A stretch of 64,000 nt of DNA, from assembly GCA_964016885.1 (NCBI GenBank), contig OZ024765.1, positions 17,484,001 to 17,548,000 of the forward strand, in the 5' to 3' direction. The stretch is from Eledone cirrhosa (Eukaryota). The notes under the pieces are model-generated. The model was not told the DNA's origin, did no database searches, and was given only the letters and a program-made list of their open reading frames with translations. A program made the translations under genes and the position numbers. Below, piece after piece: positions 5,243 to 58,804 of the stretch (positions are counted from its first letter, which is position 1; each line of letters begins with the position of its first letter).

Positions 5243-5353
5243 CCCGCTGATGAAGCCACATGCGCCGATTATGCATTGTTGCATAATATATGCGGACAAA
5301 GGGTGATATGCACGCTGCTGCTGCATTAAGTGTGGCCAAAACTTGAGTTCGGG
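5243..5353 (+). ncRNA. Degenerate hammerhead with long stem II (GAAA mutated to AAAA)
   Basis: cccg CTGATGA agccac...gtggcc AAAA cttgag TT cggg; homologous to 8096-8208 within a ~400 bp dispersed repeat. Confidence 0.55.
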
Positions 5354-5569
5354 AACTACTATAGGTACCCATTTCCGTGTGTTGTATTGTAGCGAATAAC
5401 TATGTGTATACTCTGGGAGTGTATTTAACATTACCTATTGAGTACGCTGATATGCAACCGGTCCTAGCATTGCTACCTATGCTGGGTCCGTCAACTTCTT
5501 ATTATATCACCTTGACCGACCAGTCTGTCGGACGCCGCTGGTCACAGCACGTCTGGCTGTTTTAGCCAT

Positions 5570-5750
5570 AAGATAACGCCACCCATTGGCTGGGCGGGCA
5601 GGCCGGTACTCATTTCTACAGATGAGTAAACTGGAGCAGCGTGAAATAAAGTGTCTTACTCAAGGAAACAACACATCACCGGGTGCGAGAATTGAACTCA
5701 CAACCTTTCGATTGCAAGCCCAATGCTCTAACCACTAAGCCATGCGCCTT
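5570..5750 (-). mobile_element. tRNA-derived SINE, family B (second copy at ~14620-14745)
   Basis: Reverse strand has tggcttagtggttagagc (A box), gagttcaattctc (B box) and ccttgagtaagacacttta. Confidence 0.7.
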
Positions 5751-6179
5751 CACATTATATATATATATATATATATATATATATATATATATATATATAT
5801 ATATATATATATATATATATATATATATATATATATATATATATATATATATATATATATATATATATATATATATATATATATATATAGTTCAAGAGTA
5901 AACAATCTTAAAGAGAGAGATGGAGATAGGAGAGGAGAGATAGGTGATTTAGTTAGAAGCCAAAGCGTAAAGGCATGTGCTCAATGTGCAATATGCATTA
6001 GAAAGCAGCTAGGTGGCTGGGTTCATGCAGAAGTTAGGTGCGCAGAGCTGGAAATATTCATTAGTTAAGCAAAACAAGACAACAAATTTCACAAGGTAGA
6101 GATTATTAAAAGATTGTCAAGATATTTTATTTTGATGTAAGGAATGTAGAGAATAAGAATAATAATAATATTAATAATA

Positions 6180-6365
6180 ATTGTTTCTACTTTAGGCACA
6201 AGGCCAGCAATTACCCAGTGCATTACTGGTACTTTATTTTATCGACCCCGTAAGGATGAAAGGCAAAGTCAACCTCGGCGGGATTTGAACTCAGATCGTA
6301 AAGGGACGTAACTATGCTGGAAAGCATGGTGTCTGACCCTCTACCGATACTGCCAATCCACCGCT
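6180..6365 (-). mobile_element. tRNA-derived SINE, family A
   Basis: A-box-like tggcagtatcgg, B box gagttcaaatcc, conserved core ctttcatccttacggggtcgataaaataaagtaccagt and an (ATT)n tail; many copies in the window. Confidence 0.85.
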
Positions 6366-6393
6366 CCTAATAATATTAATAATAATAATGTCC

Positions 6394-6513
6394 GTTTACA
6401 ATTGTTTCGCTACTCCATATAATATTTCTGGATCAGATGACTATATATCATAATTGATCTGGTTCAGTTGAAAATAATTAACATATTGAAAAGACAGAGC
6501 GGCTCATCGGAAC
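6394..6513 (-). ncRNA. Hammerhead motif, CCGATGA core, 95-nt stem II
   Basis: Reverse strand: gtt CCGATGA gccgctct...ggagtagc GAAA c-aatt-g TA aac; palindromic ACAATTGT stem III. Confidence 0.65.
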
Positions 6514-6628
6514 TTCAAAGGAATATAAATTAAAATAATGAGAGAATGTTACATAATATAATGTTCCATATATTGGTTTTCACTATGGTGTCTTGGTTGC
6601 ATCACAACCGGACGGTTGTTCATATATT

Positions 6629-6669
6629 GTCAAAGTTTTTTCGTCACATTCTGTGACCTCTTCAGTGAC
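6629..6669 (-). ncRNA. Hammerhead motif with degenerate stem III
   Basis: Reverse strand: gtca CTGAAGA g-gtcac-agaat-gtgac GAAA aaac TT tgac; homolog at 58195. Confidence 0.55.
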
Positions 6670-7113
6670 TGGGGATTCTTTTCTTTGTTTTTGTGCCTTT
6701 CCTTTGTTCTGTCCTACGCCATCTTGTTTTTTTGTGTGTTGTGTGCTTAATTTGCGCATGTCTTACATCCAGCTGTCTGTGTTTATATATATATATATAT
6801 ATATATATATACATATATATATATAGCAAAAGAGTCAGGGCGCCGACGGCTGTCTCCGGCCGTTTCGAAAGATAGATACGAATTAAGCTACCAGTATGCA
6901 CCAGTAGGAATACTGGTGGCTTAGTTCGGATCTAGCTGTCGAAACGGCCGTAGCTCAGCCGTCGGGGTCCTGACTCTTTTCCTATTACCCACTCTACTAC
7001 CTTAAGTATTGAGTACTCTGGTGCGTTATCGTCCACCTGGTATCTTGCCACACCCTCTTTGTCATATATATATATATATATATATATATATATATATATA
7101 TATATATAACAAA

Positions 7114-7300
7114 GCGCGGTGAATTGGCAGTATCGGTCGAGGGTTGGACGGCGTGCTTTCCAGCATAGTTACGTCCTTTTACGTTCATAGTTCAATTCCC
7201 GCCGTGGTTAACTTTGCCTTTCATCCTTACGGGGTCGATAAAATAAAGTACCAGTAATGTACTGGGGAAATTGCTGGCCTTGTGCCAAAAGTAGAAACGG
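7114..7300 (+). mobile_element. tRNA-derived SINE, family A
   Basis: Same head and core as 6180-6365, in the opposite orientation. Confidence 0.8.
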
Positions 7301-56360: not shown

Positions 56361-56553
56361 GGTGAATCCATACGTATATATATATATATGTGTGCATGTA
56401 TGTATATATATATACATACTACTGTACGTCTGTATACATATATGTATGTACGTGTACATACTTATATTTAAGTAACAGCCGTACTAAGAGTGGGAAATGA
56501 AATTTCGTTTCATTTTTTCCGTTTATATATATATATTTATATATATATATATA

Positions 56554-56686
56554 TATTTCTGAAGACAGCATATATATGTGAAGGTATGTATATTCTCTCT
56601 GATAGTTTGTATAATTTTGTACATAGATCTTTTGAATATGCATACCAATTCTAACACATATATGTCCTAGAAACGATCGTAAAATA
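56554..56686 (+). ncRNA. Hammerhead with 104-nt stem II
   Basis: tattt CTGAAGA ..atatatgtg..ggtatgtatattc...gaatatgcatacc..cacatatat.. GAAA c-gatc-g TA aaata. Confidence 0.7.
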
Positions 56687-57603
56687 ATGAACTTTTTTTG
56701 TTTAATATAAGGAACTGTTTCTTTGTTTATTCATTATTTTTTTAATAATTTATCTTGACTCTGTATTCCGTTTATCTTTCACCGAAAGTGATTTTTGAAT
56801 GCATCTCTTCTTTTCATGATATCCGGATTACATTGAGTTCTTCATACGGATTGGACACTACCGTAAACTTTTGGTAGATTTATCTACTATATATATATAT
56901 ATATATATATATATATATATATATATATATTTATATATATATATATTTATATATATATATATATATTTATATATATATATATTTATATATATATATATAT
57001 TAGTAGAACACTGGAAGGTAATATCCGTAGTAGTAGAGCACTCAGTCCATGGGACGAGTTTGGTAGAAGTATTTCGAAAAGAGGGAAAGGCAAATTTGAC
57101 CTTGTCTACAACTCAGAGAGCAGGAACCATTCTGTCCGCCATTCTAACAACTCAGCCATTTTGCCGCCTTAAATCAACATTCACAACATAATAACAAAAT
57201 AAAATATTATTAATAATAAATAACAGGAAATTAACCTCTATGTTATATGAACCATTACTAATCAATTACATATCCCCTCCATTACACCCTTCGTCAGGTT
57301 ACTCGCCGCCGCCGCCATCACAATTATCATGTTGTCTGACTCCATACTGCTGAACACCCGCAATGTACTTGCCCAATCACTTTAATAGTCACCATAACTA
57401 CACCTGCCGCCCCACCCCCACACTCTCTGTATAAAATAATTGTTTCCGAGGAGACAGTAGTTGAACTTAGATTTGAAATAAATGTACTTTTGTAAAATCC
57501 TTATATTATCTAAACAAACAAACACACACACACACACACACACACACACACACACACACACATATATAATATAAATATATATATAATATATATGTATAAT
57601 ATC

Positions 57604-57945
57604 ACAGTCCACGCTGTAATGTGGCCGTGTAGGCAACACGGTAAAAACCTCCCAGCCCCACACTGTAAATGTGGTTGGTGTTAGGAAGGGCATCCAGCTG
57701 TAGAAAACACGCCAGACAGTCCACGCTGTAATGTGGCCGTGTAGGCAACACGGTAAAAACCTCCCAGCCCCACACTGTAAATGTGGTTGGTGTTAGGAAG
57801 GGCATCCAGCTGTAGAAAATCGCCAGACAGTCCTATGCGAGCAAGACAATCACTCTTGCCTCAAGTGGGAAAACCCCCGTCCAAACCCATGCAAGCGTGG
57901 AACACGTACGTTAATGATGATGATGATGATGATGATGATGATGAT
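57604..57945 (+). mobile_element. SINE/RTE-like 3' tail with a 112-bp tandem duplication and (GAT)n end
   Basis: gttggtgttaggaagggcatccagctgtagaaa occurs twice (period 112); the element ends in (GAT)n. Confidence 0.6.
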
Positions 57946-58194
57946 ATATATATATATATAAATAAATATATATATTTCGTTTCTGAATTTGTTTAGCAAG
58001 ATTCTTTATCTGAAAACGTGTGTTGAAACTGATATTGTTATGCTTTGGGAGGGCCATGTTGCCAATAAGTAACACACGCACCAGTTACTTTCACTCCAAT
58101 TTATTATAAATTAAATTATATATTTAAAAATTTAAAAATTTATAAATTTCTGGTTGGTTGGTTGGTTCCACAATCTGACGGTTGTTCATATATT

Positions 58195-58237
58195 GTCAAA
58201 GTTCTTTCGTCATACATTCTGTGACCTCTTCAGTGAC
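58195..58237 (-). ncRNA. Type I hammerhead motif
   Basis: Reverse strand: gtca CTGAAGA g-gtca-cagaatgta-tgac GAAA g-aa-c TT tgac. Confidence 0.65.
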
Positions 58238-58426
58238 TTGGGATTCTTGTCTTTGTTTTATGCCTCTCCTTTGTTCTGTCTTAAGCCATCTTGTTTTTGT
58301 GTATGTTGTGTCACAAGAAATCACGATATATATCGTCATTGAAATATGTATAAGGGCTCAATTAATAAAGGACCCTATCATCTTCAACTTCGTATTTTCA
58401 TCCTTGTTTTTAGTTTTATTATAGAT

Positions 58427-58479
58427 GAGATTCTACAGGACTAGAACTGTTTCATTCTTTAGAAATCATCAGGAATCTC
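58427..58479 (-). ncRNA. Type I hammerhead motif
   Basis: Reverse strand: gagattc CTGATGA t-ttc-taaa-gaa-t GAAA cag-ttctagtc-ctg TA gaatctc; perfect 7-bp stem I. Confidence 0.85.
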
Positions 58480-58717
58480 AAAAGAATGAAAGAGTAGTCT
58501 TGTAGAATCTCATCTATATTAAAACTTTTATACTCTGCTATGTATTGAGTACCTTACTTACTGTGGTTACCTCTGATTCAACCCGGAATAACGTCCCTAT
58601 ATATATATATATACCGGAAGTGTAAAGTGTTCATCCAGGGGAGCACTCGACGTTTAGGTTCACGTCAGTGGTATGTATATTCATTTATGTATATTCATTC
58701 TGCCACTACTACAACAG

Positions 58718-58804
58718 AGGTCCGACGAGTTTTTGATTCCAGAGTCAGGCCAGATCGATACAGATCGAACCTTGAGTTGATCAGTAGCGAAACGCGCGTC
58801 ACCT
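58718..58804 (+). ncRNA. Hammerhead, CCGACGA core, 60-nt stem II
   Basis: aggt CCGACGA g...c GAAA c-gcgc-g TC acct; AATAAA at 58808. Confidence 0.7.

Follow-up and report, generated by a model that had tools for sequence, protein, structure and literature searches.

Minimal hammerhead ribozymes of type I are described from the pseudo-LTRs of metazoan Penelope-like elements (PLEs), and the descriptor of Cervera and de la Pena allows them a stem II of 3-7 bp and a loop 2 of 3-10 nt (PMC4209133). In File S2 of Craig et al. 2021 (PMC8557442), the 26 Hydra-clade rows, among them Hydra-1_oBim of Octopus bimaculoides, all combine stems of 3-7 bp with loops of 3-10 nt, and the longest inserts, of ~50 nt, belong to two spike-moss PLE-X elements outside Hydra. 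The Poseidon element PAc of Anolis, in the passages of Frangieh et al. 2024 devoted to it (PMC11167929), has a hammerhead near the RNA 5' end, an open reading frame (ORF) that starts at stem II, an uncleaved RNA template and internal reverse transcriptase (RT) starts that yield tail ends. Non-LTR retrozymes, as outlined in bioRxiv 10.64898/2026.07.22.740005, are short non-coding units that stem from PLE ends and contain type I hammerheads.

The window analyzed here is a 64,000-nt stretch of the Eledone cirrhosa genome (contig OZ024765.1, positions 17,484,001 to 17,548,000). Its motifs share with the minimal hammerheads of PMC4209133 the type I topology, the CUGANGA(H)...GAAA-palindrome-UH layout, the short stem I, the frequent extra base before stem II, the U3-A8 core covariant, and solo and opposite-strand copies. 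In contrast, stem II inserts here reach 56-116 nt and are rod-like or branched, and U4C is fixed in several families. Because the window inserts (56-104 nt) fall outside the published stem II descriptor, the long-armed form is a variant, not a plain member, of the PLE minimal type I hammerhead. Features in common with Hydra-clade PLEs (PMC8557442) are RWK, DKT, the CxCX5C linker, a C-terminal GIY-YIG without CCHH, (TA)n targets, tail and inverted truncated copies, and a 3-4 bp stem III, whereas motif-to-motif size is 3.2-3.6 kb here and generally <3 kb in the published elements. The position near the RNA 5' end, the uncleaved template and the tail ends recall PAc, but the arm is non-coding here, the ATG lies ~190-250 nt after the cleavage site, and two 3' ends can be ~135-140 nt apart. 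Unlike retrozymes, which form head-to-tail tandem arrays, the copies are dispersed and often inverted head to head.

Motifs of the window, their cores and their abundance

The original prediction of hammerheads with large stem II expansions is borne out in the sequence, with eight motifs from seven multi-copy families and inserts of 56-104 nt:

5243..5353, + strand: decayed copy of family 8096; stem I 5243-5246/5350-5353, core CUGAUGA 5247-5253, stem II insert 5254-5337 (84 nt)
6394..6513, - strand: family 6394, type I hammerhead motif forming the 3' end of a truncated Hydra-clade PLE; 3-bp stem I, core CCGAUGA (U4C) 6510-6504, insert 6503-6409 (95 nt), palindromic stem III 6405-6398
8096..8208, + strand: family 8096, type I hammerhead motif; 5-bp stem I, core 8101-8107, branched insert 8108-8191 (84 nt), stem III 8195-8202
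8725..8921, + strand: short copy of family 8759; motif 8759-8873, core 8762-8768, insert 8769-8858 (90 nt), palindromic stem III 8862-8869; ~8725-8754 is an inverted piece of the element's long tail, and the short tail stops at (TA)n
47682..47790, + strand: family 47682, type I hammerhead motif; 5-bp stem I, core CUGAGAA (C3.A8), insert 47694-47749 (56 nt), 19-nt hairpin as stem III 47753-47771, then 18 nt and (TA)n
51168..51538, + strand: family 51229; motif 51229-51344, core 51235-51241, insert 51242-51326 (85 nt), stem III 51330-51337; inverted partial copy ~51168-51234 (BLAST); long tail to ~51538, then (TA)n
56554..56886, + strand: family 56554; motif 56554-56686, core 56559-56565, rod-like insert 56566-56669 (104 nt), palindromic stem III 56673-56680; short end near 56753, long tail to ~56886, then (TA)n
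58718..58804, + strand: family 58718, type I hammerhead motif; stem I 58718-58721/58801-58804, core CCGACGA (U4C), insert 58729-58788 (60 nt), palindromic stem III 58792-58799

The pairing claimed for the arms at 56583-56646 is likewise present. Stem I has 3-6 bp at every site, although at 51229 the outer two pairs are supplied by the junction with the inverted partial copy and the family's own stem I has 4 bp. Stem III takes the form of an 8-nt word, perfectly palindromic at four sites, except in family 47682, where the 19-nt hairpin serves as a monomer stem III. The cores, however, are not all intact. The second core half of the 5243 copy is broken (G12 to A); its insert aligns to that of 8101 (z 13.5), and family 8096 is older, with copies at 84-88% identity. 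Self-pairing of stem III as a duplex is predicted at -6.4 to -13.3 kcal/mol for the common word of family 8096 and four words of the window; the 51229 word (-1.1) and the 8101 copy in the window (-0.6 kcal/mol) pair only weakly.

The core is canonical at 8101, 8762, 51235 and 56559, in the type I order CUGANGA, GAAA, NUH. Several families carry fixed core changes: U4C, seen at 6510 and 58722, is fixed in both families (31 of 33 full copies of family 6394), and the 47687 core places C3 opposite A8, a mismatch that 30 of the 54 copies in a young family share. Neither U4C nor C3.A8 stopped the spread of these families. Sister copies of 47687 have a compensated U3-A8, a variant that PMC3088659 treats as natural and active, and folding predicts a complete monomer for the U3-A8 copy in family 47682.

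A relaxed descriptor returned 43 motifs in 864 kb, compared with a total of 2 over 8 block dinucleotide shuffles, and each of the seven families is multi-copy (family searches gave 423-4012 first-look candidates each, with 40 scored per search). The shuffles and the recurrence in families rule out core fragments juxtaposed by chance, the case that would have undone the original prediction. The architecture is recurrent, conserved across copies and folding. A blind sample of 700 kb yielded 28 motifs, 14 of them with inserts of at least 55 nt, so one half or more would escape the published minimal descriptor, as had been anticipated for standard descriptors. Genome-wide, long-armed motifs would number roughly 60,000 (33,000-100,000) if density is even. 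Insert lengths form a continuum of 11-116 nt, of which the long ones are the long end rather than a discrete class. An Rfam covariance-model search of the window gave no hammerhead at the gathering threshold and none among the 150 listed of 511 e-value matches; it also missed the window's short-stem motifs, so this result does not single out long arms.

Linkage to Hydra-clade elements and copy ends

Five of the seven families are tied to Hydra-clade PLE reading frames; in the loci examined, an ORF link was not found for families 8096 and 58718. The families had been called unrelated, and their inserts are indeed unalignable, yet five of seven belong to one PLE clade, and RT trees, which contain elements of this genome only, group families 8759 and 51229 in a subclade with strong support (99/97). 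The motif lies 367-411 nt after a Hydra-type endonuclease (EN) reading frame in family 6394 (L112, L118) and 389 nt after Hydra ORF P0002 in family 8759 (locus L139/L212). Relatives of 56554 with 101- and 109-nt inserts follow a Hydra EN frame via a common 1-kb spacer (L302, L311). The motif is thus 3' of the ORF in these three groups, and it stands at both ends, 3.2-3.6 kb apart, in full-length elements of 51229 (pLTR-ORF-pLTR copies L211 and L230) and 47682 (L223, with a 790-residue open frame between two motifs). Its location is the pseudo-LTR/5' UTR: in full-length copies it lies ~190-250 nt upstream of the ATG and again after the 3' UTR, and the arm is non-coding. A coding constraint on the arm, as in PAc, is ruled out for the two full-length families by the distant downstream ATG.

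All five linked families encode the CxCX5C linker, a C-terminal GIY-YIG without CCHH, and CxxC plus CxH around E and N. RWR/DKT is found at the RT N terminus in P0001 and RWK/DKT in the 51229 frame, and two 6394-type frames carry RWK and DKT. In P0001 itself the last C is changed, and sister copy L225 retains it. These motifs match the definition of the Hydra clade given in PMC8557442. The 51229 ORF has a Pfam GIY-YIG match at its C terminus, the only such match among the linked families' frames. Identity with Naiad or Chlamys is ruled out, as the endonuclease is C-terminal rather than N-terminal; Naiad identity would also have contradicted the published absence of hammerheads in Naiads.

Arm expansion looks confined to this lineage. 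Among 80 Hydra-type loci from metagenome contigs, credible motifs have inserts of 10-29 nt, and none of 59 exceeds 29 nt. A single origin of the long arms gives p-AU 0.084, with at least 3 changes (12 rows). No relative was found in viral contigs, and no array found in a tandem-array search covers these motifs, the copies being dispersed or inverted.

Of 245 fragments, 195 extend across the cleavage site and only 3 begin 3 nt or less away from it, so templates look uncleaved, as the PAc passages of PMC11167929 describe for that element. The many solo copies are 170-330 nt long and have fixed start sites, which precede the core by a few to ~35 nt; their two 3' ends can stand ~135-140 nt apart. 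In the 47682 type, many copies are truncated within the 3' strand of stem II. Copy ends adjoin microsatellites, indicating (TA)n insertion, and family 6394 often stops at (ATT)n; its fragment starts at +7 to +10 fall in an internal (ATT)n run. A pile-up of 56554 fragment starts at -130 was left out, being partly an artefact of a reference copy that itself starts there.

Folding, covariation and sequence of the arm

The inserts had been described as self-complementary, and folding upholds this for the families as a set but not for every member. With descriptor-scored ends held fixed, z is negative for 18 of the 19 family representatives and averages -1.9 (Fisher p 5e-8); 7 of the 19 clusters are single copies, and cluster 29 was left out because its short motif was mispaired with a later GAAA. 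Under this scheme 6394 has z +0.5 and 51229 z -0.4. Folded alone against shuffles, the eight window inserts show a clear gain only at 56559 (z -5.5) and 58722 (z -2.2), with +0.4 at 6510, 0.0 at 47687 and -1.2 to -1.9 at the others; some are thus no more stable than shuffles. In context, the 58718 representative misfolds in the monomer ensemble (basal stem II probability 0.02). Reading the arm as a spliceosomal intron was weighed by eye at 56559, where taking out the GT-AG stretch left no canonical short stem.

Covariation, the other proposed check, is seen in the arm of one group, a 60-nt set in which family 58718 covaries with three sister subfamilies (8 rows, four related lineages, from which the structure was also derived). 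Here 93.5% of stem II cells pair. Of 21 stem II pairs, 4 have both partners changed and 6 a single partner, and in stem I both partners change in 2 of 6 pairs. The compensatory changes lie 3-6 bp from the core, and the inner helices are invariant. Stem III covariation is also seen, as is that of stem I.

Arm architectures vary between rods and two-hairpin forks, some with up to 28 outer bp. No 5-7-mer is shared among the 19 inserts above shuffles, and there is no shared sequence word pointing to one protein-binding site. In the 99/97 clade, inserts keep a length of 82-90 nt while those of different families are 48-56% identical, which is close to shuffles and lower than the 54-66% of the tails; in the 60-nt group, insert identity is 60-70% versus 52-62% for the tail. 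Outer-arm indel variants occur at 101-116, 54-62 and 73-82 nt, with short duplications and deletions. An exact-pattern search for the arm-deleted form of 58718 matched one copy genome-wide.

Explanations for the long arm and their significance

The reading that we favor, with moderate confidence, is that these are type I minimal-hammerhead motifs at PLE ends in which the outer part of stem II has, in this genome, expanded to 56-116 nt, the arm probably being retained merely as a folded, base-closed structure of free sequence whose interior would have no dedicated ligand. The predicted long hairpin would likely leave the cutting core usable, and the ribozyme would cut slowly, mostly as a dimer through predicted stem III pairing or with the element's protein. 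Transcription may start a few to ~35 nt upstream of the core, and reverse transcription primed just downstream would copy the uncleaved RNA back to its 5' end, giving rise to the many 170-330 nt solo copies. Against this reading, tolerance alone does not explain growth only in this genome (14 of 28 long, versus 0 of 59 elsewhere), and the length held at 82-90 nt in a diverged clade and the greater conservation of insert than tail in the 60-nt group both hint at selection on the whole arm. The single genome-wide match of the arm-deleted 58718 copy, the inserts no stabler than shuffles, the misfolding 58718 representative and the two families lacking an ORF link also weigh against it.

Those hints lend some weight to a selected functional module, possible though rather doubtful, in which the arm is a binding or chaperoning platform read by shape by the RT-endonuclease, or a folding switch damping self-cleavage so that uncut RNA serves as template. 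Length class is kept while sequence has turned over, compensatory changes near the core accompany invariant inner helices in the 60-nt group, an arm-less derivative is seen once, many 47682-type copies stop within the 3' strand of stem II, and the PAc hammerhead cuts only with its protein in the passages of PMC11167929. However, short-stem Hydra families thrive here (L226, 11-15 nt; L010, 12 nt; the abundant L284 type, 13 nt), and architectures differ with no common word. The lack of shared words also argues against an internal promoter or other 5' UTR signals downstream of the start as the cause of arm length, with folding kept for ribozyme survival; that explanation is unlikely, its start sites coming from copy ends only, although solo-copy starts would have the arm cover the first ~120 transcribed bases and the internal promoter of D. 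virilis Penelope overlaps the 5' UTR (Craig et al., PMC8557442). Some arms, with up to 28 outer bp, could serve as ADAR or Dicer substrates through which host double-stranded RNA pathways shape or control the elements. Coleoid cephalopods edit A to I heavily, but most arms are bulged, far longer perfect hairpins stem from inverted partner copies rather than stem II, and the proposed ADAR role leaves no trace in inserts of genomic copies (33 A>G versus 30 T>C, p 0.45), making such a role very improbable. Least credible is that the motifs are catalytically dead relics carried at PLE ends: fixed U4C, C3.A8 in a young subfamily and apparently uncleaved templates would fit, but dozens of unalignable families retain the core, stems I and III covary, and the compensated U3-A8 form is reported to be a natural, active variant (PMC3088659).

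It is conceivable, if improbable on balance, that the PLE hammerheads of this lineage gained a large stem II domain selected for length and shape rather than sequence, docking the retroelement protein or throttling cleavage, and that tens of thousands of such motifs are invisible to descriptors; Naiads may then hide long-armed forms as well. Naiads are a PLE clade reported without hammerheads, in which 'half cores' 35-50 nt apart have been noted.

Animal hammerhead censuses rest on descriptors with a capped stem II, and Craig et al. (PMC8557442) describe the function of PLE hammerheads as unclear. This genome offers a natural 11-116 nt stem II series within one clade, together with young near-identical families, a full-length element whose 790-residue frame is open and two subfamilies that differ at one base pair of the core, which makes the roles of stem II and of cleavage directly testable. 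Furthermore, the arms mark where a natural hammerhead tolerates large folded inserts.

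Long-insert motifs in the window and the sampled genome

All eight sites predicted to have hammerheads with an expanded stem II match that description, each with a CUGANGA-type half, an insert (the arm), GAAAC, stem III, NUH, and the 3' strand of stem I; the inserts measure 84, 95, 84, 90, 56, 85, 104, and 60 nt. The window yields no Rfam hammerhead at gathering score, and none is among the 150 listed of its 511 weak matches. A relaxed descriptor (core, stem I of ≥3 bp, self-complementary stem III, basal stem II pairing, and an insert of 8 to 160 nt) gave 43 matches in 864 kb (the window, the adjoining 100 kb, and a 700-kb grid) versus 2 summed over eight block shuffles, and 21 of the 43 have inserts of ≥55 nt. 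It recovers six of the eight window sites, missing 5247, a decayed copy of family 8096, because G12 is lost, and 47687 because its core is variant. On the grid alone, 14/28 motifs have inserts of ≥55 nt, which, if density is even, extrapolates to ~60,000 (33,000 to 100,000) long-arm motifs in the 3.0-Gb host genome. The host is an animal, presumably an octopod judging by a SINE sequence and the shape of the genome. A looser scan of 1.8 Mb, a sample biased by prior family searches, gave 415 matches in 38 clusters, with insert lengths forming a continuum from 11 to 116 nt. Long-arm hammerhead motifs of Penelope-like retroelements (PLEs) are genuine and, by sequence, candidate ribozymes.

The window spans positions 17484001 to 17548000 of its contig. 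Microsatellites and satellites are plentiful in it, and it also contains the following.

Other features of the window
8655 (-): hammerhead-like motif, core CAGAAGA (U4A), 13-nt stem II, 4-bp stem III
9114-9162 (-): hammerhead motif, stem II of 12-36 nt (as in the next eight)
9267-9315: short-stem hammerhead motif
10562-10612: short-stem hammerhead motif
15374-15448: short-stem hammerhead motif
15641-15709 (-): short-stem hammerhead motif
15818-15886: short-stem hammerhead motif
45071-45129 (-): short-stem hammerhead motif
45302-45353 (-): short-stem hammerhead motif
58189-58243 (-): short-stem hammerhead motif
21700-36877: large satellite array, 49-bp unit
38361-43388: large satellite array, 101-bp unit
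54007-55548: large satellite array, 125-bp unit
61181-62980: large satellite array, 28-bp unit with CTGAGGA
5685-5742 (-): tRNA-like match (37.8 bits) adjoining (TA)n, probable head of a SINE

The U4A motif, which would also escape standard descriptors, terminates an abundant Hydra-type family (loci L263, L272, L284, L294, and L217). An 18-nt-stem family among the nine short-stem motifs is located after a non-Hydra, Neptune-like PLE endonuclease frame. The descriptor detects no partner core in the 28-bp satellite unit.

Families and carrier elements

First-look candidates numbered 423 to 4012 per window site; family searches scored 40 candidates and retrieved 30 per search.

First core half in motif-covering copies (top matches, leaning towards the query)
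8096: family form in 28/30
8759: family form in 33/34
56554: family form in 34/35
51229: family form in 29/29
6394: family form (U4C) in 31/33
58718: family form (U4C) in 21/34
47682: C3.A8 in 30/54, compensated U3-A8 in 24/54

Copies terminate at (TA)n or (ATT)n, frequently with two alternative 3' ends ~135 to 140 nt apart and an inverted partial partner copy alongside, as in the PLE geometry set out by Craig et al. (PMC8557442). Family 47682 and its relatives also occur as many ~60-nt fragments (e.g., window 6826-6980 and 7650-7725), often fused to an inverted copy; their 5' ends, 31 to 45 nt before the cleavage site within the stem II 3' strand, may mark where reverse transcriptase stalled or changed strands on reaching the hairpin. 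A long near-perfect inverted repeat (window 47306-47538), apparently built from inverted 3' untranslated pieces of the 47682 element, gives a plant microRNA-like hairpin score below threshold.

Full-length copies with an open reading frame (ORF) between pseudo-LTRs were found for 51229 (L211 and L230) and 47682 (L223, with a 790-residue open frame). Their two motifs lie 3.2 to 3.6 kb apart and the first ATG ~190 to 250 nt past the cleavage site, and the arm is therefore non-coding in these copies. In 6394, 8759 (linked to an ORF at a single genomic locus), and relatives of 56554, the motif follows the endonuclease frame via a 0.4- to 1.1-kb spacer. The loci examined for 8096 and 58718 showed no connection to an ORF. 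Carrier proteins contain RWK/RWR, DKT, CxCX5C, YIG, CxxC, and CxH, the Hydra-clade signature in section 11 of PMC8557442. In a 12-row tree of elements from this genome, 8759, 51229, and two more long-arm families form one clade (99/97), and 6394 pairs with another long-arm family (99/95); a possible single origin of long arms gives a p-AU of 0.084, with at least three changes. Short-stem Hydra families (11 to 15 nt) occur in the same genome. AATAAA, possibly a polyadenylation signal, lies ~7 to 12 nt past the cleavage site in the tails of 8762, 51235, 58722, and an 82-nt family (L167, L302, and L337), followed by a U-rich stretch reaching the short 3' end; it was not seen at this position in 6394 and 47682.

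Hammerheads in PLEs have been described before, as has the Hydra clade. A non-exhaustive literature search found no description of PLE-hammerhead stem II arms of 55 to 116 nt, and long variants may be recorded elsewhere; "hammerhead" and "ribozyme" occur nowhere in the main text of an O. vulgaris repeat annotation. In File S2 of Craig et al., all 26 Hydra rows, one from O. bimaculoides, have 3- to 7-bp stems and 3- to 10-nt loops, and the longest inserts (~50 nt) belong to two spike-moss elements. As controls, 42 of the 120 listed L223-protein homologues were aligned, giving 80 metagenome-contig loci from hosts not closely related to that of the window. A motif is present in 65/80, and 59/61 distinct motifs have 10- to 29-nt inserts; the other two, of 69 nt (within an ORF) and 129 nt (a short motif paired in another way), are no more frequent than in shuffled sequence (0 to 3 per replicate). 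Inspection by eye revealed no long form at 16 loci without a good match. The 104-nt arm is present, in pieces, in contigs labelled as a second organism.

Structure and possible role of the arm

With descriptor-scored ends held fixed, 18/19 family representatives have a more stable fold than the average of their shuffles (z below -1.65 in 8/19; Fisher P = 5e-8), with predicted shapes of rods or two-hairpin forks; 6394 and 51229 do not stand out. When the motifs are folded in context, six of the seven representatives have a basal stem II probability of 0.46 to 0.99 and 58718 has 0.02; five short controls range from 0.34 to 0.99. In its U3-A8 form, 47682 is predicted to fold as a complete monomeric hammerhead. 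Covariation received partial support in the 60-nt group (58718 and three sister subfamilies; eight rows), where 7/30 pairs, including 4 of the 21 stem II pairs, changed on both sides and 93.5% of stem II cells are paired, a result of limited weight because the rows are related and the structure was derived from them.

Inserts of the window families share no common words and do not align (27 cross-family pairs; highest z, 3.1), and in the 99/97 clade insert length is steady at 82 to 90 nt with identity near shuffle level. The outer arm lengthens and shortens through short duplications and deletions. The insert is slightly more conserved than the tail in the 60-nt group, with no such excess in the other groups. 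That the arm is a dedicated module for protein docking or throttling seems rather unlikely, and it is improbable that arm length reflects underlying promoter sequence. Roles in double-stranded RNA pathways are very doubtful, as an A>G excess is absent from the genomic copies, and the motifs are hardly to be taken for dead relics. Our preferred reading, held with reserve, is that the arm is structure constrained, without a ligand of its own. One 60-nt-group copy (L185:2716-2767, minus strand) has 47 nt of arm deleted between short direct repeats and retains a canonical-sized 13-nt stem II; this form has one exact-pattern match in the genome.

Solo copies begin at fixed sites a few to ~35 nt upstream of the core, presumably where the RNA starts. 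Among 245 fragments reaching beyond the cleavage site, 3 start ≤3 nt from it and 195 (115 from one family) span it; templates are therefore mostly uncut, as PMC11167929 likewise reports for PAc, a Poseidon element of Anolis. Uncut templates, together with core changes that are fixed in families that spread, point to a ribozyme that would be slow and need a dimer or protein, with cleavage not required for every insertion. Turnover of outer-arm length would be limited by the requirement to remain folded.
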